NCBI GenBank assembly: GCA_042850255.1
Contig: AP031373.1
Coordinates: 180,001 to 212,000 of the forward strand
DNA length: 32,000 nucleotides
Source: Nanobdellota archaeon
Lineage (GTDB): Archaea > Nanobdellota > Nanobdellia > Nanobdellales > Nanobdellaceae
Direction: 5' to 3'
Shown here: in pieces, positions 1,313 to 26,219 of the stretch
Layout of the letters: every line of letters starts with the position of its first letter
Position numbering within the stretch: the first letter of the stretch is position 1
Notes under the pieces: model-generated
Told to the model about the DNA's origin: nothing
Seen by the model: only the letters and a program-made list of their open reading frames with translations
Database searches by the model: none
Program-made: the position numbers and the translations under genes

Positions 1313-1325
1313 TTTTAATAATTTA

Positions 1326-1439
1326 GTGGGCGGGCTTCCGTGCTTTCCCGGCTTTCGCCAGTACTCACACGGACGTGGGCCGGCTTGACTTCCGTGTTCG
1401 AAATGGGAACGGGTTTTTCCCGGCCACTTTGGCCGCCCT
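1326..1439 (-). rRNA. rrf: 5S ribosomal RNA (orphan, not linked to 16S/23S in this window)
   Basis: GC-rich island. The reverse complement reads GGGCGGCCAAAGUGGCCGGGAAAAACCCGUUCCCAUUUCGAACACGGAAGUCAAGCCGGCCCACGUCCGUGUGAGUACUGGCGAAAGCCGGGAAAGCACGGAAGCCCGCCCAC. It contains the universal 5S loop C/helix III signature CCCAUUUCGAACACGGAAGUCAAGCC, and helix I pairs GGGCGG with CCGCCC. The ends are good to about 3 nt. Confidence 0.9.
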
Positions 1440-1466
1440 TAATTTTTTCTTATTTATGAATATTTT

Positions 1467-2796: not shown

Positions 2797-2835
2797 AAAA
2801 ATATTTTTCTATTCTTGTATTGATAAATATTATTT

Positions 2836-3884: not shown

Positions 3885-3910
3885 ATATTACCATAAAAAA
3901 TATTTTTATA

Positions 3911-4108
3911 ATGGCTGGTGATTTATTACCTGAATTAAAAGCTAGAAAATTTGATAGGATATTTATATGTAGAAAATGTGGAGCTAGAATTAGAGCAGAT
4001 CCTGATAAAGTTAGAGCTGGAAAAGTTAGATGTAGAAAATGTGGATCTAAAGCTTTAAGACCAAAGAAATCAGAGATTGTATTAGTAGCTGGAAAAACTA
4101 CTAAATGA
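3911..4108 (+). CDS. rpl40e: 50S ribosomal protein L40e
   Basis: KFDRIFICRKCGARIRA....RCRKCGSKALRPKK zinc-ribbon pattern of L40e. Confidence 0.9.
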   Translation: MAGDLLPELKARKFDRIFICRKCGARIRADPDKVRAGKVRCRKCGSKALRPKKSEIVLVAGKTTK

Positions 4109-5211
4109 ACTTTTCTTTTAGTTTACCTAATACATCTATAATTGAAATAGGGATAATTTTTTTAGCTTTAAATATAATTTTTTTAACATTAAAATTATTG
4201 TATAAAAATAACACTGATTATAAAATTATATATGGGATGTTTAAAACAAAAAGATATACTGAAATAATGGAAAAAGCTTCTAATAGTATTTATTCTAAAA
4301 TATTATCTATATCTTCATTGTTTTTATCACCAATTACCATTTTTTTATCAATATTTTTCTTATTTATAGGATTAATTACTTATACTCCAACTTATGTACC
4401 AGTAATTCCTGGAGCTTCATATGGTGTATTTTCTATCCCAGTAATTCAATCTATAATTGCAATATTTATTGCTGCATTTATTCATGAATTTTCTCACGGA
4501 GTTTTAGTATATAAAAATAAATTAAATTTAAAATCTTGGGGATTCTTCTATATAGGTCCTTTAATGGGGGCATTTGTAGAGCCAGATGATAAAGAAGTAG
4601 AAAAAATAGATAAAAAAGAACAATTAAAAATATATGGAGCAGGGGCTACTATAAATATAATCGCTGGATTAATATTTTTAGGACTATTTTTATTATTTTC
4701 TTATATAATATCAATATTTAATTTAGCAAAACCATATGTAGAAATTGTTGGAACTATCCCACATACCAATGCTTATAATGTAATACCAAATAATACTATA
4801 TTATATTCCATAGATAATACTTCTATAAGTTATATAAACCAAATAGGAACAATAGATCAACATTTGAAACCTGGAGAATATGTTTATTTATCTACAAGTT
4901 CCGGAAATTATTATATAAAAACTACTGAAATTGATAATAGAACATATATTGGGATAATAGTTGAACAACAATATAAATATCCAAATCCTTCAATTCCATT
5001 CTTTTCTTCATTATTATTATGGTTGTTTATAATAAATATAGGATTGGGAATTGGAAATATGCTACCAATATATCCATTAGATGGTGGAAGAGCATTGAAA
5101 TCTATATTGGAAATGTTCTTAGATGAGGAAAAAACCAAAAAGATAATAAATATAATATCTATTATAGTTGTAATATTAATATTATATAATATTTCATTCT
5201 TATGGATATAG
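4105..5211 (+). CDS. site-2 protease family (M50) intramembrane metalloprotease with an internal PDZ-like region
   Basis: HEFSHG (HExxH) lies in a TM helix, and the second ligand motif is NMLPIYPLDGG. The protein has multiple TM segments. Confidence 0.85.
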   Translation: MNFSFSLPNTSIIEIGIIFLALNIIFLTLKLLYKNNTDYKIIYGMFKTKRYTEIMEKASNSIYSKILSISSLFLSPITIFLSIFFLFIGLITYTPTYVPVIPGASYGVFSIPVIQSIIAIFIAAFIHEFSHGVLVYKNKLNLKSWGFFYIGPLMGAFVEPDDKEVEKIDKKEQLKIYGAGATINIIAGLIFLGLFLLFSYIISIFNLAKPYVEIVGTIPHTNAYNVIPNNTILYSIDNTSISYINQIGTIDQHLKPGEYVYLSTSSGNYYIKTTEIDNRTYIGIIVEQQYKYPNPSIPFFSSLLLWLFIINIGLGIGNMLPIYPLDGGRALKSILEMFLDEEKTKKIINIISIIVVILILYNISFLWI

Positions 5212-6060: not shown

Positions 6061-9000
6061 TTAGATAATATGCATTATTGTATTTACTATACTAGAAGCT
6101 ATACTTGTTATAGTACTAGCTATACTACCCAATGATGACGCTAAGTTACCTGGTCTAGAATATTTCACATGATAAGTAAATTCTTGTGATGCTGATCCAA
6201 TTAGATTTTGTCCAACATAAACAGATGCTGTAATAGTTACTGTATAGGTACCTACTGGAGTACTACTAGATGAAGATATTTTTACTGATTCTCCACAAGA
6301 TGAATACTTTATATAACAAATATTACCATTTGGGAAGGAACAAGATATTCCATCATTACTAGGTGCACTACATGAAAATTGTACTTCATCATAATTTCCC
6401 AATTTCTTTGTTAAACTTGCTACTGCTTGTGTATATGCACTTCCTCCTGGAGAGGAATATCCTGAAGATGGAGATAAAGATAATCCAACTTCTGATGAAC
6501 TTGATTGCTGTACTGTATAAGTAAATGTTGAAGAGGTGGATACAGTAGAACTTGTTCCTGTATGTGCAAATGCTTCAATAGTTATACTATATGTACCTGG
6601 AGATACTGATGATGAAGATGTTATATTAATTGGTATTGAACATGAGCCCGAATAAATTGTACAATATTTACCATCTGGGAATGAACATGTGAATCCAGAA
6701 GGAGCATTACATATAAAATCTACTCTAGTACCAGTACTTAATGTTGATGAAGAAACATCTGCAGTCGTAGATGCACTTCCTCCAGGAGAAGAAGATCCTG
6801 AAGATGGAGATAATGTTAAAGATAATTGATTATTTGAACTTGGTGGTTGATTATTTGATGATTGCTGTACTGTATATGAAAAACTTTGTGAAGATGAATA
6901 ACCATTTGTAGACGCACTAATTGTTACAGTATATGTTCCTGAAGGAGTATTGCTACTAGAAGAAATATCTACTATTACATTACATTCTCCAGGATAACCT
7001 GTTCCAGTATGACTAATATAACAATAATTGCCATATGGGAAGGAACAAGATATTCCATCATTACTAGGTGCACTACATGAAAATGTTATCTTTTGATGTC
7101 CTCCTAAACTATAAACAGCTTCTGCTGATATATATAAACTTTGACCTGGAGAAGATGAACCTGAAGATTGGTTTAATGTTAATGATAATGGAGATTGGCT
7201 AGATGACTGTTGTACTGTATAAGTAAATGTTGCAGATGCTGATTGAGATTGACCATTTATATATCCAGATACTGTAACTGTTATGTTATATGTACCTGAA
7301 GGAGTATTACTAGATGAAGATATATTTACTGGCCAATCTATAGTAGTAGAATGATCTACATATGCATTATTACCATCTGGGAATAAACAAGATATTCCAG
7401 AAGGAGCATTACAGGAGAATCTAAGATGAGTATATCCACTTGTTACTACATTTACTACTGCTTCTGTACTTGCACTTCCTCCTGGAGAGGAATATCCTGA
7501 AGAAGGATTTAGTGTTATAGAAAGTGGGCTAGATGTTTGGTTTGTACTATTAGTTGATGAATTGGATGATGGAAATTCATAAATTCCCAATGACGCTAAA
7601 CCGAGTGCTGATGCAGAAAGATAATTTCCTGAAATAGTATATGTTCCTGGGGATTGATTATAACATACTGCAAAGAATGAAGTAGTAAAATAATATGGGT
7701 CGCTTTTATCTACTAATACTTGACAACCAGAAGGTACATTAATAGAGGTACATCCATAATTACCACATGCCAAAGATATAACTACATTAGAAGTAGTGTT
7801 TAATGTATAAGAATATGAAAACTTACCTTGTTGATCATATGTAGTACCTTGGAAAATATAATTTTCATTTGTATCTATTGCTACTCCTCCAATAGTTACA
7901 AAATATCCAGACTCTGTTGCTGATCCTACTGTTGCTGAACATACATTAGAACTTTGATATCCTAAACTAGAAAAATCTTGTTCACTTTCCTGAACATTCC
8001 ATGAAACTGATGAAAATGGATAATTTGAAGTAGCACCATTACATAAATATAGATTAGCAGATGGTAAGGATATAGATTCAGAAATTGGTCCCGGTGATCC
8101 TGTATTATATGTTGTGGAATTATAACCAACTATACTAAATCCAGAATTACTTGGAGATGGTCCTGGTGATGGAGAAGGTGAAGGAGGTGGTGAGGGGCTG
8201 GGGGAAGGTGATGGACTAGATGAAGAAAATTCGTATATACCTATAGAAGCTATACCATTTGGATTAGATATAGAAACTTGGTATGTTCCTGGAGATTGAT
8301 TATAACATACAGCAATAAATGAGGTCCCTAGACTATTTAAATCACTATTATCTACTAATACTTGACAACCAGAAGGTACATTTATTGAACTACAAGAGCT
8401 ATATCCACAAGCGACAGATATAACCACATTAGATGGTTCGTTTACATTATAATTATATGATGTTGATTGAGATTGACTTCCAAAATAGTATGTAGTTCCT
8501 TGGAAAGTATAATTTTCATCCGTGACTATAGCAATACCTCCTAAAGAAAAACCATAAAAGTAAGAACTACCTAAATAAGGGACGTTTATAGAACACTCGC
8601 CTGAATTTTGATATCCTAGACTTGTATAAATGAGATTTCCTAAAGTACCAGGTACGCTACTTTCTTGCTGAACATTCCATGAAACTGAAGATAACGTTGG
8701 ACTTCCTCCAGCATTGCATATATATATTGATGCTCCTGAAGGTAAAGATAATGATAAAACTGTATTTCCATTTATAGAATCTATATCATTATATCCATAT
8801 CCAATAACTTCAAAGTTCGAATTTTGATTATTATTAGATGGCTGATTACCTCCTGAATTATTATTGGAGTTATTATTATTAGAATTATTATTGTTATTAT
8901 TTGAATTGTTACCTCCAGAATTGTTGTTATTATTGTTGTTGTTATTATTAGAATTATTATTATTGTTATTAGAATTATTAGAAGATCCTTCTATAGTATA

Positions 9001-9435
9001 TGAGAATATTTTTGATGCTACAGAACCATCTGCAGATGCTATTATAGTTATATTATATGTACCTGGAGAATCCGTAGGATTTGGAGCTATATTTATATTA
9101 ACAGAACAAGAATCTGAACTTCCAGATCCACCAACAGGCGTACAACTTGGACCTTGAGGAGTATATTGACATATAACTCTTCCAGATTCATTAGGAGTTA
9201 TAGTACAACTACTTGGTTGAATATTACATGTAAAATATGGAGAATATTGACATGTAAATGTAACTGTAGTCTGAGAACTTACAATATCTGTAGCTGTTGC
9301 TATAGTATTTAATGTTTGGTTAGGATATGATGAACCTGAAGATGGGTACAGATTCAATGATAGTCCTTGAGAGAATACTCTATATGATAAAAAAGAAAAT
9401 GCAAACACTATAGAGAATATTAACACTTTTTTCAT
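6061..9435 (-). CDS. giant secreted modular surface protein (P1), 1124 aa
   Basis: Signal peptide MKKVLIFSIVFAFSFLSYRVFSQ. One N-terminal and four C-terminal Cys-containing Ig/CARDB-like modules of about 110 aa (LSLTL.PSSGSSSPGGSAS...FSC.APS..SCSFP.G..C...C...SSS..PGTY.VTI...FTYTVQQSS). A poly-Asn tract spans aa 151-207. Two copies of an unknown domain of about 190 aa (aa 208-403 and 432-622) are joined by an SPSPSPSPSPPPSPSPSPGPSPS linker. The C-terminus is weakly hydrophobic. Confidence 0.9.
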   Translation of the reverse strand: MKKVLIFSIVFAFSFLSYRVFSQGLSLNLYPSSGSSYPNQTLNTIATATDIVSSQTTVTFTCQYSPYFTCNIQPSSCTITPNESGRVICQYTPQGPSCTPVGGSGSSDSCSVNINIAPNPTDSPGTYNITIIASADGSVASKIFSYTIEGSSNNSNNNNNNSNNNNNNNNNNSGGNNSNNNNNNSNNNNSNNNSGGNQPSNNNQNSNFEVIGYGYNDIDSINGNTVLSLSLPSGASIYICNAGGSPTLSSVSWNVQQESSVPGTLGNLIYTSLGYQNSGECSINVPYLGSSYFYGFSLGGIAIVTDENYTFQGTTYYFGSQSQSTSYNYNVNEPSNVVISVACGYSSCSSINVPSGCQVLVDNSDLNSLGTSFIAVCYNQSPGTYQVSISNPNGIASIGIYEFSSSSPSPSPSPSPPPSPSPSPGPSPSNSGFSIVGYNSTTYNTGSPGPISESISLPSANLYLCNGATSNYPFSSVSWNVQESEQDFSSLGYQSSNVCSATVGSATESGYFVTIGGVAIDTNENYIFQGTTYDQQGKFSYSYTLNTTSNVVISLACGNYGCTSINVPSGCQVLVDKSDPYYFTTSFFAVCYNQSPGTYTISGNYLSASALGLASLGIYEFPSSNSSTNSTNQTSSPLSITLNPSSGYSSPGGSASTEAVVNVVTSGYTHLRFSCNAPSGISCLFPDGNNAYVDHSTTIDWPVNISSSSNTPSGTYNITVTVSGYINGQSQSASATFTYTVQQSSSQSPLSLTLNQSSGSSSPGQSLYISAEAVYSLGGHQKITFSCSAPSNDGISCSFPYGNYCYISHTGTGYPGECNVIVDISSSSNTPSGTYTVTISASTNGYSSSQSFSYTVQQSSNNQPPSSNNQLSLTLSPSSGSSSPGGSASTTADVSSSTLSTGTRVDFICNAPSGFTCSFPDGKYCTIYSGSCSIPINITSSSSVSPGTYSITIEAFAHTGTSSTVSTSSTFTYTVQQSSSSEVGLSLSPSSGYSSPGGSAYTQAVASLTKKLGNYDEVQFSCSAPSNDGISCSFPNGNICYIKYSSCGESVKISSSSSTPVGTYTVTITASVYVGQNLIGSASQEFTYHVKYSRPGNLASSLGSIASTITSIASSIVNTIMHII
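8143..8226 (-). repeat. Ser/Pro dipeptide-repeat linker (locally GC-rich) inside P1
   Basis: Encodes SSSPSPSPSPSPPPSPSPSPGPSPSNS between the two copies of the ~190-aa domain. Confidence 0.9.
8815..8985 (-). repeat. imperfect AAT/AAC trinucleotide tract encoding poly-Asn (aa 151-207 of P1)
   Basis: The plus strand reads (ATT/GTT)n with interspersed AGA and TCC. It translates as SSNNSNNNNNNSNNNNNNNNNNSGGNNSNNNNNNSNNNNSNNNSGGNQPSNNNQNSN. Confidence 0.95.
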
Positions 9436-12312: not shown

Positions 12313-12346
12313 TTATCTAAATATATAAATAAAATTATTAATATAT

Positions 12347-12430
12347 GCCGCGGTGCCCGAGTAGACTAAGGGGTCTGGCTCGAGACCAGATCCCCGAAAG
12401 GGGGCGTGGGTTCAAATCCCACCCGCGGCG
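12347..12430 (+). tRNA. tRNA-Ser (anticodon CGA), class II with long variable arm, no encoded CCA, no intron
   Basis: Acceptor stem pairs GCCGCGG with CCGCGGC, discriminator G. Anticodon arm is TCTGG-CTCGAGA-CCAGA. Variable arm is CCCCGAAAGGGG. T arm is GTGGG-TTCAAAT-CCCAC. Confidence 0.93.
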
Positions 12431-12966
12431 TTAAATAATTTTTCAATATCTTCTTCTATTTTTCTCAAATTTTCTCCTAAATTATATATACTATCCCTAC
12501 CTTTTACAGTAATTAAATTTTTATCAACATAATAATCATAGTTTGTTATTAATTTTACACCAGAATTTTGGAAATATTTTAAATATTCTGGATATTCATC
12601 ATAGTTATATACTATTGTTTTTCCAACTAATAATCCTGTCCTTAAAAATGCTATTTGAGATAAAGAAGATAATATAACTGTTCTATAAGAATTTATAAAT
12701 CTTGTAAATATTGCTTGTGTTTCTACATCCATAAAATCTTTATAACCCTTATCTGCAATAAATATTAATCTATCAAAATGATTTTCCTTCATTAAAAATA
12801 TTTCATGAATATCAAAATCTGGTAATACTTTACTTTTATATTTTCCAATACCAATTTCTCTATCTTTTATCGCAATATAATTTCTTCCATCTAATATATC
12901 TAAGAAATTAAATAAATCATCCTCATCAAATCCTCTTCTTGGCAATATTATTAAATTCATTTTCAT
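12412..12966 (-). CDS. DJ-1/PfpI-like (class I glutamine amidotransferase-like fold) protein lacking the nucleophile Cys
   Basis: The pattern MNLIILPRRGFDEDDL...FDRLIFI...RTVILSSLSQIAFLRTGLLVGKTIV...YVDKNLITVKG parallels PfpI (yDalvlPGG...vaaiChgp.vL..agllkGkk...vvDgnliTsrg). The protein contains no cysteine at all. Its last 19 nt overlap the 3' end of tRNA-Ser on the other strand. Confidence 0.45.
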   Translation of the reverse strand: MKMNLIILPRRGFDEDDLFNFLDILDGRNYIAIKDREIGIGKYKSKVLPDFDIHEIFLMKENHFDRLIFIADKGYKDFMDVETQAIFTRFINSYRTVILSSLSQIAFLRTGLLVGKTIVYNYDEYPEYLKYFQNSGVKLITNYDYYVDKNLITVKGRDSIYNLGENLRKIEEDIEKLFNAAGGI

Positions 12967-12996
12967 AAATTATATAACAATATTAAACTATTAAAA

Positions 12997-13017
12997 TTTT
13001 TAACTTCTAAAATATCT
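12997..13017 (+). promoter_or_regulatory. putative promoter of gene 13027: TTTTTAA-N8-ATATCT, 9 nt before the ATG
   Basis: Same spacing and the same ATATCT box as the P1 and P2 promoters. Confidence 0.4.
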
Positions 13018-13026
13018 TAACAAAAT

Positions 13027-14700
13027 ATGCCAGATATTAAATTTGATGATATAAGGAATGAAAAAATTGAGGATAATAAACATAAATTATTGGAAATAAA
13101 ATTAATATTTGATAATCCAAATATAAAGTTTGAACAGATGTATTTTTGGTTATTAGATTTTATTAGAGATAGTTTAAAATTAAATGTTAGTAAATTATCA
13201 GATGAGTTCACATCTTCTGTAGGTTCATTATTTTTTGGAGAAATGAGTCAAAGAGCTTCTGCAGTATTAAATACTGCAAGATCTTTAGGAGAATTATTTA
13301 ATACGTTGACAAGATCTATAATATCAATATTAAGCGAATATAAGCAAATACAATCAAGGGTTGTATTATATGAAAAATTATTATCAAATGATAAAGATGA
13401 AGCATATAGTGCTTATTTAACATTAAAAGATCTATGGATAAATAATGTTGATTCTAATAGAGGAGGATCTAGTTTACTAAATATATCAAGAGGTAGATTA
13501 GGATTTGCAACTGCAATAGATTTATTTTATTTGGAAGAATTAAAAAATGAATTAGAAAAATTAAAAAATAAAGGAATAATAGGGGAAGCTTTATTTAATA
13601 AAATATTTAATGAACCTTCTCATATACCAAGGGATTTAGAAGAAGCAAAAAATAAAAATATAATAAGTCAACCTGTATATAATGTTGTAAATATAAGATT
13701 ACAAGAATTTTATAATTGGTTAGAAATTAATAGGAAATATTTATATGATAGAAATAATTTACTAAAATCCTATTTAAGACATCAGCTAAGTGCTTTATTA
13801 TATTATATAGAATTTGCAAAACCATATTTTAAATTTGCTAGAAAATTATTACAAAATCCTGAACAACCTGTAGATGTTGTAAATGCATTTGAAACTGCAA
13901 TAATAAATCTAACTTTGGTATCTATAGGAAAAGAGAATAATATAAAAGAATTTAATGAAAAGGAAGGAAAAGAAGAGGAAAAGATATATATACCAATGTA
14001 TGAGATAAATATATCTGCAAGGGCATTACCTACAGTAGTAAGTAGATCTGGAGGAACTAGTATGTATACATTTATTGGTAGAGTAGATATATATTTAAGA
14101 TCATATATTTTAGAAAAAAGTGAATATGAAAGTATATTAATAAATCAGGAAGCTGAAGATTTATTATATATTACTGGTTTAACTGAAGATTATGTAAAAG
14201 ATATGGCGGATATTATATTGGAGATGTTTTTATATGATATAATAAAAAATGATGAAAATTTATTAAAAACTGTTGCTGAAAAATCTGGAGCAACACCTGA
14301 AGAAATAAAAAACAATCCTTATAAAATAAAGTGGACAAGAGAATTATTGGAAGAATTAGAAAAAAATGATAAAATAAAAAAAGCATTGGGAAGTATAAGA
14401 TGGATAAAAAAATATTTAGAATCTGAGAAAAAGGATCAAAAAAAGGAAGAAAAGAAAGAAGAGAAAAAAGAATCTGGTTTAAAATTTATATTTCCTACAT
14501 TTTCAGATATATTCATGTATTTATTTCAATTTATTACAACTTTTAGAAAAGATTTGCATTCTATAGAAAAAAATATAAAAAAGAAAAATATAGAAAATGA
14601 AAAGAAACAAGCTATGGATGATTTCAAGGATAAAACAATTGATACTGCATGGAAAATATATATGACATTTAAAAAGACATTTAATATGTTAAATTATTAA
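13027..14700 (+). CDS. hypothetical protein, 557 aa, mostly helical; no family recognised
   Basis: Long uninterrupted ORF with genome-typical composition. It has a K/E-rich tract KKDQKKEEKKEEKKES followed by a hydrophobic segment GLKFIFPTFSDIFMYLFQFITTF (aa 484-506). No signal peptide. Confidence 0.8.
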   Translation: MPDIKFDDIRNEKIEDNKHKLLEIKLIFDNPNIKFEQMYFWLLDFIRDSLKLNVSKLSDEFTSSVGSLFFGEMSQRASAVLNTARSLGELFNTLTRSIISILSEYKQIQSRVVLYEKLLSNDKDEAYSAYLTLKDLWINNVDSNRGGSSLLNISRGRLGFATAIDLFYLEELKNELEKLKNKGIIGEALFNKIFNEPSHIPRDLEEAKNKNIISQPVYNVVNIRLQEFYNWLEINRKYLYDRNNLLKSYLRHQLSALLYYIEFAKPYFKFARKLLQNPEQPVDVVNAFETAIINLTLVSIGKENNIKEFNEKEGKEEEKIYIPMYEINISARALPTVVSRSGGTSMYTFIGRVDIYLRSYILEKSEYESILINQEAEDLLYITGLTEDYVKDMADIILEMFLYDIIKNDENLLKTVAEKSGATPEEIKNNPYKIKWTRELLEELEKNDKIKKALGSIRWIKKYLESEKKDQKKEEKKEEKKESGLKFIFPTFSDIFMYLFQFITTFRKDLHSIEKNIKKKNIENEKKQAMDDFKDKTIDTAWKIYMTFKKTFNMLNY

Positions 14701-14725
14701 ATTACAAAAATATTATATTATATTT

Positions 14726-16804
14726 ATGGATGATAAAGAAAAGAAGTATCCTCAAGAATTATTTAATAGACCTATATCTACAAGTTCGAATCCAAATATA
14801 ATAAATCAATTACAAGCCTTTATAGAAAAAGTAAGGGCAGGATATCCTGGAGTAGAAGTACAAACATTTAGATTTGAAGAACAGTGGGCTAGAATACCAA
14901 AAATGATATTTGAAGAAATTGCAAGATCTGCTAAAATAAATAATATAGAACTATCTATACATGCTCCAGAAAATGATTTTCAAATATCTGGAATAAAAGA
15001 TGTAAGACAACCAATTAATGAAGAAGCTAAAAAAGATGCTGCATACAAAATTTCTTCAGTATTAGAAGGTGGAGAACTTATGGGACAAATATATGGAAAA
15101 CCAATAAAAGTAAATATGCATGGAGGAGATATACCACTAACTCAATGGGATAAAGAATTTGAAGAAAGAGTGAAAAATAAATTATTGAATGACCCAAATT
15201 ATAGAAGACAATTTGCAGAAAAATTATATAGATTAGGATTTATAACACAGGATCAATATAATCAATTAATACAAAATAATATCAACAGAGATATTTTAGA
15301 AAAAAATGTACCATCATGGGCATTTGCAAGATCTGAAGCTATATATTACAAAATAAATGGAAATTATGAATTTGAAGGTTTATTATCACCATATGAAAGA
15401 GGATTTCAAAGAGTTTTAAGAGAAACAGGAAGAGAAACAGAAGGAGAAATAAGAACTATAGTAGATGATTTATATGATAGGAATGAAAAGTTTTGGATAG
15501 ATGTATTTAATAATATAGATAAGCAATTTTCTGAATTATTATATAAATATCGTAGAAATTTAAACAATTTTGTACAAAATTTATATACTACTGCAGGATT
15601 TGCTTCTGTTTATCAAAAAGGTATAGGAGAATTTATATTTGATATAAAAACATATAGAAATGTTTTAGAGGAGGTAAAAAGATATATAGATATAATAAAG
15701 GAGAATATAGGAGATATAAAAGATCAAAGATTGAGAGAAGAATCTTTAAATAATATAAATAAATATGAAGGATTATTGAATAGTATTATAGACGGATTAA
15801 AAAATTATGAGAATAGATTATCAGAATATGCAAAGGATGCAATGCTAAATACAAATAGTGAACAAATAAGAGATTACTTATTAAATGAAGTAGATAATAT
15901 TGCAAAATATATTGAATCTTCATCTGATATAGTGAAATTATTAATGTATAATATGAAAACTAGTATATTTGCTGATAAAATAATACCAGTAGCATATCCA
16001 TTTCAAGAAGTAGCTACTAAAGTCGGGGCAGAAAATATTGCAGAAGGAGTAAAAATGTTAATTGAAAGAGAAAAAGCTAGAGATCCTGAAAATTGGTATA
16101 AAAATATTGCACAATATTTACCAGATATTATAATAGAAGAATCTTATCCAGGTACTCCGGGAACAAGACCTGACATATGGAAAAATTTATTAAATAATAT
16201 AAGAGAAGAATTAAGAGAAACTATAAATCAATATCCTGAATTAAAAAAGGAAATAGAAAAACAATATGGTAGCGTTGATAATTATTTAAAATATAAAGTT
16301 GGTGCTAATTTAGATGTAGGACATATAAAAATGTTTGAAAAATTTGGTTATAATAAAGAAGATATATTAAAATGGGTAGAAGAGATTAAACCTGAAATAA
16401 AACATTTACATTTGCATGAAGCTCAATGGGGTACTGATACACATTTACCTGTAGGATTAGGATGGGATAATGTTATAGCTGAAGAATTAGAAAAAATAAA
16501 GGATATATTGGGAAATATATCTGTAGTACACGAACCTGGTGGATGGTATTCTTATCAATTTGCAGAATCTTATGGAAATGAATATTCATATTATTTACAG
16601 GGTGTAAATCCTACAAATGTATATGGTCCATTATATGGTACAGGAGTATTTACATTTACTCCATATGGAGGTGTACAACTTGTCCCTCAATATATACAAT
16701 ATACTCAATATTCTCCATATTCTTATAGTATATTTACTCAATTACCACTAGATTTAGGAGGAGGTAAAAAACAACAAACATTTACTGGAGAAAAATTAGA
16801 TTAA
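14726..16804 (+). CDS. AP-endonuclease-2 / xylose-isomerase-like TIM-barrel protein (Endo IV-like ligand set) with a ~330-aa insertion and a Tyr-rich tail
   Basis: Motifs in order: LSIHAPEN (H79), KVNMHGGD (H132), IIIEESYPG (E471), NLDVGHIKMFEKFGYN (D530/H533), IKHLHLHEA (H562/H564), DTHLPVGLGWD (D571/H573), VVHEPGG (E603). This mirrors E. coli Nfo as I remember it: HDSYLINL, NFHPGS, VIENTAG, CIDTCHAFAAGYD, MHLNDA, DRHHSLGEG, LILET. Confidence 0.7.
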   Translation: MDDKEKKYPQELFNRPISTSSNPNIINQLQAFIEKVRAGYPGVEVQTFRFEEQWARIPKMIFEEIARSAKINNIELSIHAPENDFQISGIKDVRQPINEEAKKDAAYKISSVLEGGELMGQIYGKPIKVNMHGGDIPLTQWDKEFEERVKNKLLNDPNYRRQFAEKLYRLGFITQDQYNQLIQNNINRDILEKNVPSWAFARSEAIYYKINGNYEFEGLLSPYERGFQRVLRETGRETEGEIRTIVDDLYDRNEKFWIDVFNNIDKQFSELLYKYRRNLNNFVQNLYTTAGFASVYQKGIGEFIFDIKTYRNVLEEVKRYIDIIKENIGDIKDQRLREESLNNINKYEGLLNSIIDGLKNYENRLSEYAKDAMLNTNSEQIRDYLLNEVDNIAKYIESSSDIVKLLMYNMKTSIFADKIIPVAYPFQEVATKVGAENIAEGVKMLIEREKARDPENWYKNIAQYLPDIIIEESYPGTPGTRPDIWKNLLNNIREELRETINQYPELKKEIEKQYGSVDNYLKYKVGANLDVGHIKMFEKFGYNKEDILKWVEEIKPEIKHLHLHEAQWGTDTHLPVGLGWDNVIAEELEKIKDILGNISVVHEPGGWYSYQFAESYGNEYSYYLQGVNPTNVYGPLYGTGVFTFTPYGGVQLVPQYIQYTQYSPYSYSIFTQLPLDLGGGKKQQTFTGEKLD

Positions 16805-19717: not shown

Positions 19718-19789
19718 GGGCCCGTAGTCTAGTGGTAAGATTCCGGCCTCGCTAGCCGGAGATCCCGGGTTCAAATCCCGGCGGGTCCA
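19718..19789 (+). tRNA. tRNA-Ala (anticodon CGC), no encoded CCA, no intron
   Basis: Acceptor stem pairs GGGCCCG with CGGGTCC and includes the G3:U70 Ala identity pair; discriminator A. Anticodon arm is CCGGC-CTCGCTA-GCCGG. T arm is CCGGG-TTCAAAT-CCCGG. Position 37 reads as T, which is unusual. Confidence 0.9.
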
Positions 19790-19867
19790 CTATTAAAAAT
19801 ATTTAATTTATTTTAGATAGAAATCTAAAATTATTTATATAAAATTAGTAATATAAAACTTCTATTT

Positions 19868-22800
19868 TTATATTAATATTAAAGCTATTGCAATTATTCC
19901 TACTAACAATGGATATAATATATTTTCTGATGCAACTAAGGATGTTGGAGATGAAAAATAATTTACTACTAAATTATATTGATAATTCAATACATTATCA
20001 TTATCTAAATCAAAACCTAGATATAATATAGAAGATCCTACATAAAATGGAAATGTTGCAAGTTGAACTATATAAGATTGTCCCGGTTGTAATGTTGGTA
20101 TATTTATATTTTCCACCTTATAAAGTGGCATATTATTATATAATATTTCTGGAATATTTCCCAATTGTTGCAAACTAATTGAAAGATTATTTATTGTTAT
20201 ATTATTACTAGTATCTGTTAAATTCAATATTAGGTAATAATATGGTATATTTAAATAAAAATTAAGTGTATTTCCCACAGGATAGATTCTTTGATTATTA
20301 TTTTCAGGAATTGCGTATATTTGTAATTTTAATATTTCAGATAGAAGTAAAATGTTAAGAGTATAAGTAGCTATGTATGATGAATAATTATTAAATGCTA
20401 TAACTTGTATACTATACGTACCTGAAGGAGTATATGTAGAAGAAGTTATATCAATTGGTATTGAACATGAAGTACTTGTAGTAGTACATGAATTACCTTG
20501 AGGGAGTGAACAATATACTCCAGAAGGTGGAGAAGAAATCTGTTGAATTGATATAGAGGGCATAACACCATTTGGTGGATATGCTCTCACTAAAGTCCAA
20601 CCAATATTAATCTCTGTAGAAACACCAGATACTCCATCAGTTGACGCTTGAAATAATAAAACAAAAGTATCAGAACTAGAACCAGTTACATAATTACTAT
20701 TTTGAACAACTCCATCAGGCCATAAAATATTAAAGGCAAAACCTGTGCTATTTAATATTTCTTGAACAATAAAAGTATAATCATAAACTGAAGATGAAGC
20801 AGGAACTACATATCCATTATAAGCTCCATTAAAGAATACTTCTGCCTGATTATAATAATTAGTTGATGAAAAAAGTCCATAGTCTCCATGACCCGTTTGT
20901 ACCATCCAACTATAGTAGTTCTGGTCTGCAATATCAGATACACTTGTAGCACTACTTAACCAGATATATTCTCTTGCTCTTATATCATCTCCAGATGATC
21001 CGTATAAATTTTCTAAAGTTTCCCATATAAATGGTTGTGATTGAGTAAATGTTTGCTTTGAATATATCCAAACTCCTCCATAGCTACCATTTCCTAAATA
21101 ATATAATTGAACTCCGTTGTCCACATTCATATAACCTGTTGAACCTGAGGGTATATATTCACCAGCAACCCATAAATCTGTATTCAAACTTGTTCCAGCA
21201 AAATTGTCATAAAACTCAAATACATATTGTCCATTATCATATATTCCATAATTTAGACATTGACTCATATTAGTATATCCTTCTTCATAACAATACCAAT
21301 ATGCGCTTACTCCAACAAATGGATAATATTGTTGATAATAGTTAGTAGAAGAAGGTCCTACATTCATATATATAGTAACCTGTCCATTTGCTGGTATTCC
21401 ATTAGGCAATTTTACCCACCAAACATCACAATATACTCCATTAATATTTTCCTGTCCCTCAAACCAGGAATATAACAAAGTAGTAGAATTGGAGAAATAT
21501 ACATTCTGACCATTAGAGTCTATTTCATTAAATAATGTAGGATTATCTACATATGCAAAATTATTACCTAAATTTACATTTCCGTTACATATTGCAATAT
21601 CTTGTTGAAATGGTGCTGGAGTAGGAATTGGTTGAGAATTTGTTATAGTTATTTGGTATATATTATTTAAATTACAAGAAAGAGTTATAGTTGTAGATGC
21701 ACCTCCTGGATTATATAGATTTGCTGTTGCTGTAGTAGATAAGGATCCTCCTGGATATGTATATCCTGATGAAGGATTTAGTATTAATGAAGTAATAGTT
21801 GGTGGTATTACATTTACAGTTATATTTATAGATCCTGAATTACCTGTAACTGTATCTGTTGCTGTTATTGTTACTGTATATGTTCCAACATTAGTAGTAG
21901 GAGATACGGATATATTTAATACCGCGGATCCTCCCGAACTTGTTGTATTAGGAGATATACTACAAGATAGTCCTGATGGAGCATTGCATGATAAACTTAA
22001 TGAATATCCATAATTATCTGATGCTGTTATTGTTGATATATTATAACTACCTTGGTATATAGTTAATGATGATGGAGATGCTGATACTGATATAGATTCT
22101 GAAGGAACTGTTACTGTAATGGTTGTAGAATTACTATTACCAGTAACTGTATCTGTTGCTACAATATTTATATTATATGTACCAGGAGAAGTACTGGAAG
22201 GTACCGATATAGTTAATGTAGAACTTGATCCTGAAGAAATAGTACTGGGATTAAAACTACAAGACCAACCAGATGGTAAATTACTACAAGATAAAGATAG
22301 AGAATATCCATAATTATCCGAAGCAGTAATTGTTGATGTATTAGAACTTCCTGGATATATATTTAGAGTACTTGGAGATGCCGATACAGAAATTGTTTCT
22401 GAAGGTATATTATATGTAAATGTTGCGGATGCTGAAGAAGCTGAAGTAGATCCTACAATTTGAATATTATAAGAACCTGGAGAAACTGATGTAGATGAAG
22501 TTATATTAATTGGTATTGAACATGAAGTACTTGTAGTAGTACATGAATTACCTTGTGGGAATGAACATGTAAATCCTGATGGAGTATTACATGAAAATGT
22601 TACTGTTGTAGATGCACCTCCTGGATTATATAGATTTGCTGTTGCTGTAGTAGATAAGGATCCTCCTGGAGCAGAGGAACCGGAAGAGGGATTAAGAGTT
22701 ATAGATGTAATTAAGACTGCTGGCTGAATTGAAAATGATGGCATAACACCATTTGGAGGATAAGATCTAATTCTTACCCAATATACCAGATAATTTTGTA

Positions 22801-23821
22801 GAGAAGCTTGTTGAGCAATTGTTATTGGTAATGTAGTATTAGAAGGTAATATTGTGGAAGATCCTACAGTAGTATAATTAATATAAAAATCAATAGTAGT
22901 AGAATTCAATCCTATTCCATATATTGTTGTAATATTATTATAATAAGTACTTCCTATAGTAGTATTTCCAGAATATAATTCAAATAATCCCGCATTACCA
23001 TTATTATTATAAGAAAATGCTGCTCCATCATTATTTCCTCCGACAGTTAATCCTCCTCCACCTCCAATGAAATATGTATATGTTGTACTTGCATTTCCTA
23101 TTCCAAATACTATTACATCAAAGGTAGTTCCTGAAGTTACTGGAATACTTAATTCTGCTTCAATAATATTATTTTGAATACTATAATTATTTGTTGTAGT
23201 TATTCCTGAATTACAACCATTTGAAGGTAATATTGTATAATCTGTACCAAAATTTGGAGAAACACTACAATATATTATGCTCCATCCCGAAGGCAAAGAA
23301 CTTAATCCTCCAAAGTTTTGGTAATAATTAAATACATAATTTCCATTATCATATTGAGAAGTACTTAATACTTGTATTGGGGCACCTACATATGGATAAT
23401 ATTGTGAATAATAATTGTTACTACTATTTCCTATATGCATATATATCGTATAATTACTATTTGCAGGAATTCCATTAGGTAATTTTACCCACCATACATC
23501 ACAATATGTTCTATTAAAGTTTTCCTGACCTTCATACCACGAATATAATAAAGAACCTGTAGGGTCATTTATATTAGTAAAGAAATATACATTCTGTCCA
23601 TTGGAATCTATTTCATTAAATAATGTAGAATTGTCTACATATGCAAAATTATTACCTAAATTTACATTTCCGTTACATATTGCAATATCTTGTTGAAATG
23701 GTGCTGGAGTAGGAATTGGTTGAGAATTTGTTATAGTTATTTGATAAATACTTTGAGAAAATATTTTGTAAGATAAAAATATAGATACTAACACTAATAA
23801 AAATATAGATATCCTTCTCAT
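19868..23821 (-). CDS. giant secreted modular surface protein (P2), 1317 aa: 2x DUF2341 + ConA/LamG-like lectin blocks, Ig/CARDB-like modules, C-terminal TM anchor
   Basis: Signal peptide MRRISIFLLVLVSIFLSYKIFSQ. DUF2341-like signatures appear twice (IYQITITNSQPIPTPAPFQQDIAI...NVYF...LLYSW.EGQEN...CDVWWVKLPNGIPAN...TIYM..G), each followed by a LamG-like YDNG.YVF..Y.NF.G region. Two tandem 100-aa modules span aa 473-672. The Cys-knot modules are shared with P1. The C-terminus is ILYPLLVGIIAIALILI. Confidence 0.9.
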   Translation of the reverse strand: MRRISIFLLVLVSIFLSYKIFSQSIYQITITNSQPIPTPAPFQQDIAICNGNVNLGNNFAYVDNSTLFNEIDSNGQNVYFFTNINDPTGSLLYSWYEGQENFNRTYCDVWWVKLPNGIPANSNYTIYMHIGNSSNNYYSQYYPYVGAPIQVLSTSQYDNGNYVFNYYQNFGGLSSLPSGWSIIYCSVSPNFGTDYTILPSNGCNSGITTTNNYSIQNNIIEAELSIPVTSGTTFDVIVFGIGNASTTYTYFIGGGGGLTVGGNNDGAAFSYNNNGNAGLFELYSGNTTIGSTYYNNITTIYGIGLNSTTIDFYINYTTVGSSTILPSNTTLPITIAQQASLQNYLVYWVRIRSYPPNGVMPSFSIQPAVLITSITLNPSSGSSAPGGSLSTTATANLYNPGGASTTVTFSCNTPSGFTCSFPQGNSCTTTSTSCSIPINITSSTSVSPGSYNIQIVGSTSASSASATFTYNIPSETISVSASPSTLNIYPGSSNTSTITASDNYGYSLSLSCSNLPSGWSCSFNPSTISSGSSSTLTISVPSSTSPGTYNINIVATDTVTGNSNSTTITVTVPSESISVSASPSSLTIYQGSYNISTITASDNYGYSLSLSCNAPSGLSCSISPNTTSSGGSAVLNISVSPTTNVGTYTVTITATDTVTGNSGSINITVNVIPPTITSLILNPSSGYTYPGGSLSTTATANLYNPGGASTTITLSCNLNNIYQITITNSQPIPTPAPFQQDIAICNGNVNLGNNFAYVDNPTLFNEIDSNGQNVYFSNSTTLLYSWFEGQENINGVYCDVWWVKLPNGIPANGQVTIYMNVGPSSTNYYQQYYPFVGVSAYWYCYEEGYTNMSQCLNYGIYDNGQYVFEFYDNFAGTSLNTDLWVAGEYIPSGSTGYMNVDNGVQLYYLGNGSYGGVWIYSKQTFTQSQPFIWETLENLYGSSGDDIRAREYIWLSSATSVSDIADQNYYSWMVQTGHGDYGLFSSTNYYNQAEVFFNGAYNGYVVPASSSVYDYTFIVQEILNSTGFAFNILWPDGVVQNSNYVTGSSSDTFVLLFQASTDGVSGVSTEINIGWTLVRAYPPNGVMPSISIQQISSPPSGVYCSLPQGNSCTTTSTSCSIPIDITSSTYTPSGTYSIQVIAFNNYSSYIATYTLNILLLSEILKLQIYAIPENNNQRIYPVGNTLNFYLNIPYYYLILNLTDTSNNITINNLSISLQQLGNIPEILYNNMPLYKVENINIPTLQPGQSYIVQLATFPFYVGSSILYLGFDLDNDNVLNYQYNLVVNYFSSPTSLVASENILYPLLVGIIAIALILI
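21546..21655 (-). repeat. 110-nt perfect direct repeat, copy 2 (start of second DUF2341 block)
   Basis: Base-for-base identical to 23634-23743 (checked by hand). Similarity above ~90% continues for about 60 nt further towards lower coordinates. Confidence 0.95.
21806..22405 (-). repeat. tandem duplication, 2 x 300 nt (two 100-aa Ig/CARDB-like modules of P2)
   Basis: PSETISVSASPSTLNIYPGSSNTSTITASDNYGYSLSLSCSNLPSGWSCSF... compared with PSESISVSASPSSLTIYQGSYNISTITASDNYGYSLSLSCNAPSGLSCSI...; the period is exactly 100 codons. Confidence 0.95.
23634..23743 (-). repeat. 110-nt perfect direct repeat, copy 1 (start of first DUF2341 block)
   Basis: Identical to 21546-21655. Confidence 0.95.
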
Positions 23822-23897: not shown

Positions 23898-26219
23898 CTA
23901 TGCAAATATTAAAAATGCTAAAATAGAAACAATTGCTATTAATGGTGATAATATACCTTCTGATACTTTAAGATATTGATTATTTGGAGCTGGTGGAAAT
24001 ATACCATATTCCAATAATTCATTGCCAATATAACTTCCATTAATTAAAAATTTAAATAAAAGATTACCGTTTCCAGTATTTATAGGTAAAATAAAAAATT
24101 TTATACTAACTGTTTGATTTGGATATAAATTACCAATATATATAGAATTGCTTTCATTAAATCTTGTATTATTATATACTAAAACCATAGGAGATAAACC
24201 ATATCCTTCTAAATTGTTTAATATATTAAATGTAAAATTACTTATAGGGTAATTACCTACATTAGTTAAATTTACTATTAATTCGTAAAATGGAATTCCA
24301 AGTAATAAACTTATATAATTTTGTACTTGGATTAATGTACCAGATTGGTTTAAAAATATTTTTGGATCTATTAAACCATAATATACAGGAACATATACTA
24401 ATATATCCTTATTAGAACATAATCCTACATTACTACATGATATAACATTTATAGATATTGTTTGTCCTGCATTATATGGTATATAAACACTGAAAGTATT
24501 TTCATTATATGTTATATTTGAATATCCATTGCTTGTTGTTATTGTAATATTATTTATTCCTGATAAAGCATATGAGGATACATTAAAAATTAGATAAGAT
24601 TGATTGTTAATTAAAGATGATCCTAAATATGTTATATTTATTGTTGGTGGATTACTATCTATTAATATATTATTTATACTTTGACTATTACATGTAGTTT
24701 TATTACAATATACTATTGTTAGATTATAAATTCCAGATGTTTTTAATAATTGTGTAAAATTATAGGAACTCAATGTAGTTGAGAAACTACTTTGATATAT
24801 TGGATTATTATTTGCATAAATAGTAAAGTTATTTATATTACTAAATGATGTATTAATTATTAAACCTGTAGTCCATGTTCCAGGAGTATATGTTTGTCCA
24901 TTTGTAGCTAATAAATCTATCGAAACTCCTGCTGGGGCAGAAGTAGGAGTTGTAGAAAATTGTATATTCGAACAGGAAAGAGTTGGGAAAATTATAGGAA
25001 GCATGTTTGTATTTTGGAAAATAAAAGCATTGGTATCAGTATATAGGAAATAATTTAATGTTCTGTGTATAACTATATTATTACTTTCATTAACGGCTAT
25101 AAAAACGGGAGAAAAAACGTCATAAATACAATTAATTGTTAGATTATCAATAATGTCATTAGAAATGCCTGAGAGACTTGTAGGTAGTCCAAATACATAT
25201 TCTGTTAAAGAAGCTAATATATCGGAGAACAAATTATTATTTATAGGAGATGAACGGAAGTAAATACCATAAGTGGAATTATAAATATAGATATTAGAAA
25301 ATGAATTGCTATTTACAGGAGATGAATAGAAGTAAATACCATAAGGCGAATTATATATATTTATATTAGAAAATGAATTATTAGATATGTCATAAAAAGG
25401 AGGAGAAGAAGAAGAATAAAGATATGAATAAATACCATAAGTGGAATTATAAATATAGATATTAGAAAATGAATTATTAGATACATCGGAATAAGCAGCT
25501 TCTGAACTAGAATAAGGATACAAATAAATACCATAAGTGGAATTATAAATATAGATATTAGAAAATGAATTATTAGATACATAGGCATTGGAATAATCAA
25601 AGCCATAAGAAGTAGGGTATAGATAAATACCATAAAGGGAGTTATATATATTTATATTAGAAAATGAATTATTAGATACATAGGCATAAGAAGTATAAAT
25701 ATTACTAGGAAAAGGAAGAGAAGAAGGAGGAGGCTCTGAATTAGAATAAAGATACAAATAAATACCATAAAGGGAGTTATATATATTTATATTAGAAAAT
25801 GAATTATTAGATACATAGGCATAAACATTATAAGAATTACTATAAATAGAAGGAGATAGATAAATACTAATATTTACATTAGATATACTTAAATTATTTA
25901 TAAATATATTTTCTAAAATTATATTACTAGAACCAGAAGAAATACTATAGTATATTCCATAAGTATCTGTATTTTCACCAGGACCGATTATCCAATATCC
26001 ATTTCCATCAATTATTACATTATTTGTAGCTATTTGTATACAATAATATATACCCAAAGTAGAATTATAAACAAAATTTGTTAAATTATTTGTTAAATAA
26101 TAAACACCTGGAGAACTTATTGTAATACCACAGGAAGATATAGGAGTTTGGGAATAAATATTATGATTAAATAAAAATCCAAATATTAATAATAACAATC
26201 CATATATAAACTTTTTCAT
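23898..26219 (-). CDS. secreted right-handed parallel beta-helix (PbH1/NosD-like) surface protein (P3), 773 aa, C-terminal TM anchor
   Basis: Signal peptide MKKFIYGLLLLIFGFLFNHNIYSQ. The N-terminal cap CGITISSPGVYYLTNNL...CIQIATNNVIIDGNGYWIIG is typical of archaeal beta-helix proteins. There are at least 6 coils of VSNNSFSNI(N/Y)IYNS.YGIY.Y, Ig-like middle domains and many N-x-S/T sequons. The C-terminal domain and the anchor (ILSPLIAIVSILAFLIFA) are homologous to those of P2. Confidence 0.88.
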   Translation of the reverse strand: MKKFIYGLLLLIFGFLFNHNIYSQTPISSCGITISSPGVYYLTNNLTNFVYNSTLGIYYCIQIATNNVIIDGNGYWIIGPGENTDTYGIYYSISSGSSNIILENIFINNLSISNVNISIYLSPSIYSNSYNVYAYVSNNSFSNINIYNSLYGIYLYLYSNSEPPPSSLPFPSNIYTSYAYVSNNSFSNINIYNSLYGIYLYPTSYGFDYSNAYVSNNSFSNIYIYNSTYGIYLYPYSSSEAAYSDVSNNSFSNIYIYNSTYGIYSYLYSSSSPPFYDISNNSFSNINIYNSPYGIYFYSSPVNSNSFSNIYIYNSTYGIYFRSSPINNNLFSDILASLTEYVFGLPTSLSGISNDIIDNLTINCIYDVFSPVFIAVNESNNIVIHRTLNYFLYTDTNAFIFQNTNMLPIIFPTLSCSNIQFSTTPTSAPAGVSIDLLATNGQTYTPGTWTTGLIINTSFSNINNFTIYANNNPIYQSSFSTTLSSYNFTQLLKTSGIYNLTIVYCNKTTCNSQSINNILIDSNPPTINITYLGSSLINNQSYLIFNVSSYALSGINNITITTSNGYSNITYNENTFSVYIPYNAGQTISINVISCSNVGLCSNKDILVYVPVYYGLIDPKIFLNQSGTLIQVQNYISLLLGIPFYELIVNLTNVGNYPISNFTFNILNNLEGYGLSPMVLVYNNTRFNESNSIYIGNLYPNQTVSIKFFILPINTGNGNLLFKFLINGSYIGNELLEYGIFPPAPNNQYLKVSEGILSPLIAIVSILAFLIFA
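25230..25829 (-). repeat. degenerate tandem nucleotide repeats encoding beta-helix coils of P3
   Basis: Recurrent units ATAAATACCATAAGTGGAATTATAAATATAGATATTAGAAAATGAATT and ATAAATACCATAAAGGGAGTTATATATATTTATATTAGAAAATGAATTATTAGATACATAGGCATAA. A 67-nt perfect repeat occurs at 25623-25689 and 25758-25824. Confidence 0.9.

Follow-up and report, generated by a model that had tools for sequence, protein, structure and literature searches.

Introduction

Endonuclease IV (Endo IV; E. coli Nfo, P. furiosus PF0258) is a compact, single-domain enzyme of ~285 residues that carries nine His, Asp and Glu positions on a triosephosphate isomerase (TIM) barrel. Here we analyze two adjacent open reading frames (ORFs), ORF1 (YN1_2290) and ORF2 (YN1_2300), of the cultivated Nanobdellota archaeon YN1 (the organism described in PMC11420986), within a stretch of 32,000 nt of its 773-kb genome (contig AP031373.1, positions 180,001–212,000, forward strand), here called the window and numbered from its first letter. 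Both genes are recorded as hypothetical proteins, and neither is mentioned in the description of YN1 (PMC11420986). ORF2 has the barrel and the nine positions of Endo IV in the same strand order, and keeps the D-x-H-x-x-[LV]-G-x-G loop. Unlike Endo IV, in which a gap of 35 residues separates the strand-4 His from the strand-5 Glu, the ORF2 family has a gap of 226–340 residues and an additional C-terminal extension of ~88 residues. The DNA-contacting motif that follows the first His of Endo IV is not conserved in ORF2, there is no significant sequence match to Nfo, and the ORF2 gene is linked to ORF1.

Other described proteins resemble parts of this system. MJ1311 (PDB 3wqo), an uncharacterized xylose-isomerase-like TIM barrel from Methanocaldococcus jannaschii, has VHAP, DIGH and HVHAHD...D.H..IG.G motifs in common with the insertion-deleted ORF2, but it is a compact 293-aa barrel with neither insertion nor tail. 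CbiR, a cobamide-remodelling phosphodiesterase, belongs to the same AP_endonuc_2 superfamily and is the best-scoring named NCBIfam model, although ORF2 lacks a cobamide context, differs in architecture and scores far below the model cut-off; by analogy, CbiR indicates that superfamily members other than Nfo can be phosphodiesterases. The MNIOs are TIM barrels with nearly identical ligand positions, and they act together with a partner protein. The MNIO/DUF692 systems (MbnBC, TglHI) thus resemble the pair in barrel, in a multinuclear metal site at equivalent positions and in the combination of enzyme and partner, but ORF2 has no DUF692 match, ORF1 is unrelated to their partners and no precursor peptide is evident. 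MntA and other minimal nucleotidyltransferases share a Pol-beta-superfamily domain with the nucleotidyltransferase (NTase) linked to the pair in Woesearchaeota-type genomes only; the linked NTase is longer (275–292 vs. ~110–140 aa), has no HEPN partner and scores well below the cut-offs.

The barrel superfamily is already known. Its split form with a conserved tail, the family of the partner and the extended gene string are undescribed; the searchable literature, that on DPANN included, was found to describe neither of the two families nor the module. With its domain-sized insertion and dedicated partner protein, ORF2 would be an AP_endonuc_2/Endo-IV-type barrel of a kind not described before, and ORF1 defines a family of several hundred clusters without a Pfam model or a recognizable fold. 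Among cellular genomes, those of Nanobdellota and other DPANN archaea include some of the smallest, with much of the retained content unannotated. We show that a module with the gene pair ORF1–ORF2 as its core is conserved across the phylum Nanobdellota ("Nanoarchaeota" as GTDB understands it, comprising Nanopusillaceae, Woesearchaeota-type and Pacearchaeota-type lineages). We tentatively propose that ORF2 is a metal-dependent phosphodiesterase acting in a cytoplasmic complex with a non-catalytic ORF1 partner, a proposal that we regard as close to an even call.

ORF2 is a split barrel of the AP_endonuc_2 superfamily

The two genes and the parts of ORF2, all on the forward strand, are as follows.

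13027–14700, forward strand: ORF1 (YN1_2290, 557 aa), member of a large alpha/beta family; proposed non-catalytic partner
14726–16804, forward strand: ORF2 (YN1_2300, 692 aa), split AP_endonuc_2/Endo-IV-like TIM-barrel, putative metalloenzyme
14726–15130, forward strand: N-terminal barrel half, aa 1–135, strands 1–4 (predicted strands)
14960–14962 and 15119–15121, forward strand: ligand codons H79 and H132, conserved in 37/37 members
15131–16120, forward strand: insertion, aa 136–465, between strands 4 and 5 (predicted structure)
16121–16543, forward strand: C-terminal barrel half, aa 466–606, strands 5–8 (predicted strands and Pfam)
16136–16138, 16313–16315, 16322–16324 and 16409–16411, forward strand: ligand codons E471, D530, H533 and H562
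16436–16438, 16442–16444 and 16532–16534, forward strand: ligand codons D571, H573 and E603
16544–16801, forward strand: aromatic/Gly-rich C-terminal extension, aa 607–692, conserved in 37 members

The AlphaFold2 (AF2) model of ORF2 (predicted local distance difference test, pLDDT, 76; predicted template-modelling score, pTM, 0.78) has eight strands (18–20, 42–46, 75–79, 128–132, 467–471, 525–530, 558–563 and 599–602) that alternate with helices. The ligands lie at or just past the ends of strands 3–8, as expected for the Endo IV type. An earlier reading of the window from its letters alone (the original prediction) had proposed an Endo-IV-like TIM barrel, and the eight-stranded model, the position of the ligands and the matches to Pfam AP_endonuc_2 (PF01261) bear this out. 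The Pfam alignment covers the C-terminal barrel half only. On YN1 ORF2 it spans aa 524–582 with 28.6 bits (cut-off 31.1), and removal of residues 137–464 raised the score to 30.6 bits, just below that cut-off. Six of six insertion-deleted members were matched (best E-value 1.2e-11), and Woesearchaeota-type members reach 34–50 bits, above the cut-off. ORF2 is a TIM barrel of the xylose-isomerase-like/AP_endonuc_2 superfamily.

Full-length ORF2 yielded only weak partial matches when compared with the PDB by Foldseek (probability up to 0.96, E ~0.2–0.3), because the insertion breaks the alignment; they were the African swine fever virus apurinic/apyrimidinic (AP) endonuclease, UlaE, tagatose, allulose and ribulose 3-epimerases, and the TglHI holoenzyme. 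Sequence and profile searches of the PDB with ORF1 and full-length ORF2 returned coiled-coil noise only, and the best solved sequence relative of the insertion-deleted barrel was MJ1311, a marginal match (E = 0.017). Among named NCBIfam models, CbiR showed the strongest similarity (6/6 tested members, best E-value 1.3e-6, strand 6–7 region), at 15–17 bits for YN1 ORF2 against a model cut-off of 105. Weak matches of the family to fructoselysine 3-epimerase and IolO were also detected.

Conservation was analyzed in 15 Nanopusillaceae-type homologs and in a wider set of 37 full-length members from related genomes and metagenomes, with ~20% identity to the YN1 protein; ligand positions of E. coli Nfo were taken from the translated nfo gene. 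The motifs, residue numbers and order of the nine ligands in the original prediction were all correct, and H79, H132, E471, D530, H533, H562, D571, H573 and E603 are invariant in 15/15 Nanopusillaceae-type homologs. The same prediction had left the choice between H562 and H564 open; H562 is the conserved residue, and H564 is confined to Nanopusillaceae. Seven of the nine (all but D571 and H573) are kept in 37/37 members of the wider family. The D571-x-H573 pair is kept in 26–27 of the 37, and H-x-E or H-x-D takes its place in 11/37. This swap keeps one carboxylate and one imidazole, and is therefore evidence for metal binding. The broad alignment has 8 invariant and 19 near-invariant columns, and ligands account for 7 of these 27; judged from the alignment, ligand conservation is far above chance.

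The H132–E471 spacing of 338 residues, compared with 35 for H109–E145 in E. coli Nfo, confirms the predicted insertion of ~330 residues between the second His strand and the Glu strand, and the wide spacing recurs in 37/37 members, whose total length is 571–705 aa. AF2 models the insertion as a helical bundle with one beta-hairpin: a helical segment (143–200) and the hairpin (203–220) are followed by long helices at 245–273, 298–328, 334–374, 378–417 and 426–452, three of them of 31–41 residues. It is the least conserved region of the protein, with ~13% identity to the YN1 insert. The claim that it is unusually rich in K, E, N, I and L did not hold, since these residues make up 46% of the insertion and 42–49% of the barrel halves. 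An origin of the insertion from ORF1 was ruled out (hhalign of ORF1 vs. ORF2, 0.5% probability).

Past strand 8, all 37 members carry an extension of 78–99 aa (median 88) with the motif YWNQ..G.YF.GYG..P.QHF..YG.GF..LP.ELGG....F.G, ending in F[ST]xLPxxLGG...F[ST]G; its pLDDT is <50 in the AF2 model. The Tyr/Gln/Pro/Gly-rich composition noted earlier is real (46.5% Y/Q/P/G and 16% Tyr in YN1), but the tail is not the mere low-complexity sequence it was taken for, being a variant of the family-wide motif. The insertion and the tail are hallmarks of the ORF2 family.

ORF1 belongs to a large family

In contrast to the earlier description of ORF1 as an orphan that matches nothing, the protein belongs to a family of at least 648 clusters. 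In an exhaustive ORF1 profile search of 1.84 billion representatives (50% identity clusters), 648 clusters reached E<=1e-3, of which 261 also reached E<=1e-30; most are 450–550 aa long. The named matches come from Candidatus Nanopusillus and from Pacearchaeota, Woesearchaeota and "Nanoarchaeota archaeon" metagenome-assembled genomes, and a third homolog search with the ORF1 profile added no new sequences; looking up the clusters contributed hardly any further taxon names. Identity to ORF1 is 65–80% within Nanopusillaceae, where ORF2 is less conserved (~53%), and 25–30% in Woesearchaeota- and Pacearchaeota-type genomes. No significant match to ORF1 was found in Pfam, NCBIfam, PHROGs, PADLOC or PDB sequences, a 90-sequence profile included, and Foldseek searches of the PDB and BFVD with ORF1 gave no fold match. 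Resemblances to a single-stranded RNA phage maturation protein, to TolC-like proteins and to the STAT core were discarded as noise (E ~0.1, TM score < 0.2).

The AF2 model of ORF1 (pLDDT 75.5, pTM 0.52) has an N-terminal beta-alpha-beta unit, two very long helices (70–117 and 215–275), then a four-stranded sheet (291–363) with strands of 20–27 residues, and more helices. Toward the C-terminus, a K/E linker leads to a short hydrophobic motif, and the last helix ends in a conserved YKK.(H/F)GM. Aromatic or structural residues (Y39, W231, P266, G351) make up most of the invariant positions, and no catalytic-looking cluster or motif was found among the conserved columns. The C-terminal feature lies at the following position.

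14428–14544, forward strand: K/E-rich disordered linker (aa ~468–483) and F-rich hydrophobic motif (aa 484–506) of ORF1

Residues 468–510 have a pLDDT <50. ORF1 had been proposed to associate with membranes through this segment, a proposal that finds little support: the mean Kyte-Doolittle value is 1.29, compared with 2.93 for SecY helices, and distant homologs have a K/E tract with a PF..L..F motif that has shrunk to ~10 residues. The sequence makes a short interaction or peripheral-binding motif more likely than a membrane span. No signal peptide and no transmembrane-grade segment was found in ORF1 or ORF2.

ORF1 and ORF2 are linked across Nanobdellota

ORF1 and ORF2 are direct neighbors in YN1, N. 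aerobiophila, N. acidilobi and L002. They lie side by side in every cultivated Nanopusillaceae member. The order TruD(−), Trp/TyrRS(−), a 178–184-aa gene(−), ORF1, ORF2, SecY, a membrane protein, L34e and L14e was seen in YN1, N. aerobiophila and N. acidilobi, and in L002 from its 10.7-kb contig onward. The counterparts of the 25-nt spacer between ORF1 and ORF2 measure 22–31 nt in L002, L094 and L095. Beyond Nanopusillaceae, L001, the P0117 contig, L006 and L009–L012 have a co-directional ORF2-family gene downstream of the ORF1 homolog, and no ORF2 homolog was found within the flank in L003, L004/L005, L007 or L008.

A truncated ORF1 alignment was used to scan metagenomes, since the K/E low-complexity pattern had swamped an earlier scan of the genome collection (6 loci); 489 stretches were confirmed and 80 loci were kept. 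A full-length ORF2 homolog was present in 30/39 loci with at least 4.5 kb of downstream DNA, and in 28 of the 30 it was co-directional and downstream, mostly 0.6–1.3 kb away. The linkage thus ranges from adjacent genes in Nanopusillaceae to a spacing of 0.6–2 kb in relatives at ~25% identity, which supports the earlier view of the two genes as a real functional module. The pair is kept in genomes of 0.6–0.77 Mb; in YN1 it occupies ~3.7 kb, roughly 0.5% of the genome.

In Woesearchaeota-type genomes the pair is part of a larger gene string. The gap between ORF1 and ORF2 holds a 170–260-aa protein that is highly charged, disordered, poorly hydrophobic and fast-evolving, and that keeps a few short motifs, with LPFE.K.KY[KR] at the C-terminus. 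A Pol-beta-superfamily NTase of 275–292 aa follows the ORF2 homolog in 32/33 loci with enough downstream sequence; its similarity to MntA/ANT-like proteins is weak, only generic NTase-domain models were matched in PADLOC, and no PDB sequence match was found. Upstream of the ORF1 homologs, a protein of ~123 aa is divergently transcribed in 46/73 loci, with GluRS beyond it in 41 loci. Its N-terminus is basic (FKKKK..IDL..LQKRG), its Ser-rich linker contains LGFLG and its C-terminal part is a coiled coil (Y.L..RI.LLEKKL); it gave no family match. Representative positions are given below.

L009:11423–11911, L010:11719–12267, L001:10124–10702, L073:9584–10093 and ~25 other loci: disordered-protein gene
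L069:6985–7854, L001:13307–14140, L046:12449–13276 and others: nucleotidyltransferase gene
L056:7250–7621, L001:7421–7759, L022:1711–2079 and others, reverse strand: gene of the ~123-aa protein

Hidden Markov models (HMMs) of the disordered protein, the NTase and the small coiled-coil protein gave no convincing match to the YN1 window or to the remaining loci from Nanopusillaceae, which makes ORF1 and ORF2 the core of the string that has been retained. An extra gene of ~200 aa upstream in N. aerobiophila and N. acidilobi was considered as the missing disordered protein and rejected, as it encodes a membrane protein.

Some individual loci deserve mention. In L006, 11 nt past the most divergent ORF1 homolog (P0120), the gene fragment 3363–4427 resembles the N-terminus of an ORF2-type protein through its motifs SIHTP and VVVHTAEF, which a coiled-coil-like stretch follows; it is BLAST-undetectable and is cut off by the contig end. 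In the L004/L005 and L007 lineages a gene for an OapC-type Zn-ribbon protein lies directly upstream of the ORF1 homolog (L004:6407–6775 and L007:9559–9939). In N. aerobiophila, HEPN (121 aa) and MNT (115 aa) genes lie ~3 kb downstream of the module (L094:10264–10964). This is a typical type VII toxin-antitoxin arrangement, unrelated to the 289-aa Woesearchaeota-type NTase; the MNT protein matches the NTase HMM through the shared NTase domain only.

Proposed function and alternative explanations

The retention of the pair, its linkage at ~25% identity and the preserved active site point to an important, probably near-core function, for which no pathway map accounts. We propose that ORF2 would be an active metal-dependent hydrolase, most likely a phosphodiesterase with three metal ions like Endo IV, and that it would work in the cytoplasm in complex with ORF1, which may serve as a scaffold, substrate-presenting or localizing subunit. 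The helical insertion and the conserved tail would be likely contact or specificity elements. The well-predicted part of the insertion (aa 136–222) is a good candidate for a substrate-selecting lid, because the insertion starts at the catalytic face directly after H132-G-G-D, and the long helices might project as a stalk. Probable substrates would be nucleic-acid ends or lesions, or nucleotide-linked groups; the presence of the disordered protein and the Pol-beta NTase in the same gene string fits nucleotide or phosphodiester chemistry. Three cultivated co-culture systems (YN1, N. aerobiophila and N. acidilobi) make the function directly testable.

Several observations weigh against this proposal. 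The same nine ligand positions also occur in the oxidative MNIO/DUF692 enzymes, so that the ligand set alone is no proof of hydrolysis. We infer the spatial clustering of the nine ligands from the strand topology of the predicted model only, in which the D571/H573 loop has a pLDDT <50, and complex formation between ORF1 and ORF2 from gene linkage only. In about a quarter of the informative ORF1 loci, an ORF2 homolog is lacking within 8 kb. Nfo-specific NCBIfam models gave no ORF2 match at E<=1, and hhalign of the insertion-deleted profile against E. coli Nfo (a single-sequence template) returned a probability of 0.6%. The Endo-IV-like protein PF1383, in which some of the nine residues are missing, shows no AP-endonuclease activity and no binding of DNA (PMC2770678). 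By this precedent, family resemblance would be no guarantee of nuclease function, and the ligand set would matter without sufficing as proof.

ORF2 might instead be a housekeeping AP endonuclease (Endo IV/Nfo) for base-excision repair, decorated in this lineage, with ORF1 an accessory protein or a mere neighbor. We consider this rather unlikely. It agrees with the presence of all nine ligand positions in the correct order, but the missing matches to Nfo in NCBIfam and by hhalign count against it as well. In Endo IV the first His is followed by the motif H-x-x-Y-L-I-N, whereas ORF2 has H-A-P-E-N-D-F, and strict linkage to ORF1, to the disordered protein and to the NTase does not correspond to the way base-excision-repair genes are arranged. 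The ortholog in N. aerobiophila carries the label "AP endonuclease" in the databases, and the best solved match, MJ1311, is listed as a predicted M. jannaschii Endo IV homolog by Kiyonari et al. (PMC2770678). N. equitans, however, has a separate canonical Endo IV of 293 aa, NEQ368, abundant in its proteome (PMC3149612), so that the 600–700-aa form is unneeded for that role and is not simply the Endo IV of the phylum. Judged by its sequence, ORF2 is not a canonical Nfo. That it is a sugar or sugar-phosphate isomerase or epimerase, xylose-isomerase-like and tethered to a scaffold, is improbable, even though the Pfam family is named "xylose isomerase-like TIM barrel", several homologs are labelled "sugar phosphate isomerase/epimerase" by JGI, and the Foldseek partial matches (tagatose, allulose and ribulose 3-epimerases, UlaE) and weak NCBIfam matches (fructoselysine 3-epimerase, IolO) include such enzymes. 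Sugar epimerases of this kind have a four-residue E-D-H-E metal site. These four positions are present in ORF2 as a subset of the nine and hence do not discriminate, but five further His/Asp ligands are also invariant, the compensated D-x-H to H-x-E swap included, and the nine-ligand trinuclear pattern favors a phosphodiesterase-type enzyme over a four-ligand epimerase. The strongest NCBIfam similarity is moreover to a phosphodiesterase, CbiR, the linked genes encode an NTase and disordered proteins with no sugar-pathway neighbors found, and YN1 lacks most metabolic pathways (PMC11420986).

It is quite improbable that the pair is mainly structural, with ORF2 as a barrel-derived building block whose stalk-like insert and sticky tail, together with ORF1, form a cytoplasmic scaffold or filament, catalysis being secondary or lost. 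The AF2 helices of roughly 40 residues in a bundle and the disordered linkers and short conserved motifs of the module would suit such a role. YN1 contains unassigned cytoplasmic filaments of 6.6 nm, together with an attachment organelle whose composition is likewise unassigned (PMC11420986), and filaments or attachment-organelle machinery were seen by cryo-electron tomography in YN1 and N. aerobiophila. Perfect conservation of metal ligands at ~20% identity nevertheless argues for retained catalysis, PDB sequence and Foldseek searches found no similarity to cytoskeletal proteins, and the module also occurs in lineages without a known organelle of this kind. A more speculative reading, and a long shot, is that the string of coiled-coil protein, ORF1, disordered protein, split barrel and NTase forms an unrecognized phylum-wide cytoplasmic system: Tyr-rich disordered proteins or tails would be nucleotidylylated by the NTase, and the barrel would remove the groups as a tyrosyl-nucleotide phosphodiesterase, in a cycle controlling the assembly of an ORF1-based scaffold. 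The Nanopusillaceae core could then contribute to the cytoplasmic filaments or the attachment organelle. An MNIO-like (DUF692/MbnB-type) multinuclear iron oxidase that modifies a peptide or protein, such as its own Tyr-rich tail or the disordered protein, with ORF1 as substrate-binding partner, is very improbable. Fold, ligand positions and enzyme-partner logic are shared, TglHI is among the Foldseek partial matches, and both the Tyr/Gly-rich tail and the linked disordered protein have conserved motifs; in Pfam scans, however, no ORF2 member matched DUF692, ORF1 is unlike any known MNIO partner, a Cys-rich precursor is absent, and many Woesearchaeota-type hosts come from anoxic sediments or groundwater (as judged from sample sources), in which chemistry that depends on O2 is unlikely. 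That nuclease and NTase make up a mobile system for anti-virus defence or of the toxin-antitoxin kind is scarcely credible. The linked NTase is weakly similar to MntA-type and candidate defence NTase domains, but PADLOC gave no match for ORF1, ORF2, the L001 homologs or the disordered protein, and PHROGs none for ORF1, ORF2 or the disordered protein. The module also keeps stable synteny with housekeeping genes, which are TruD, Trp/TyrRS and SecY in one lineage and GluRS in the other, the pair persists in the reduced genomes of 0.6–0.77 Mb, and composition gives no sign of a foreign island.

Genome setting of the pair in YN1

The noncoding stretches beside the pair and the divergent upstream gene are the following.

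14701–14725: ORF1–ORF2 spacer, 25 nt, AT-rich (from the sequence)
12967–13026: divergent intergenic region upstream of ORF1, 60 nt, AT-rich; putative promoter region
12412–12966, reverse strand: ORF of 184 aa, divergent from ORF1

The two co-directional ORFs stand exactly where the original prediction placed them, 25 nt apart and ending 32 nt before secY, which starts at 16837 (SecY Pfam match, E = 2e-46). The same prediction held that they occupy a conserved slot before secY. This was not confirmed: the genome has a fragmented ribosomal operon, of which L14 and S17 (476–1212, reverse strand) lie ~12 kb from the pair, and the Woesearchaeota-type module adjoins GluRS. Outside Nanopusillaceae-type lineages the module is not beside secY; the adjacency is a lineage-specific synteny and thus no clue to function. 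The spacers are AT-rich (24% GC), and TATA-like runs precede every gene, so that they are uninformative on co-transcription of ORF1, ORF2 and secY.

The divergent 184-aa ORF has no Pfam match, and at its 3′ end it overlaps the opposite-strand tRNA-Ser(CGA) gene (12346–12431) by ~20 nt. L002, N. aerobiophila and N. acidilobi have a conserved gene of 178–184 aa at the corresponding position. No RNA gene overlaps ORF1 or ORF2, the nearest being this tRNA-Ser and a tRNA-Ala at 19718–19790.

Elsewhere in the window, a stand-alone 5S rRNA gene (1325–1440, reverse strand) adjoins L14 and S17, with a small RNA-metabolism cluster close to it (1467–3884: RNase P Rpr2, PTH2 and a LigT 2H-phosphoesterase), and FEN1 lies at 26486–27535. 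Three very large ORFs are all on the reverse strand: 6061–9435 (1124 aa), 19868–23821 (1317 aa) and 23898–26219 (773 aa). The 1124-aa and 1317-aa ORFs show weak matches to PKD, Ig-like and NPCBM-associated domains, and on this basis are probably surface proteins. Raised GC in the window (0.29–0.33 vs. ~0.22–0.25) coincides only with these three ORFs.

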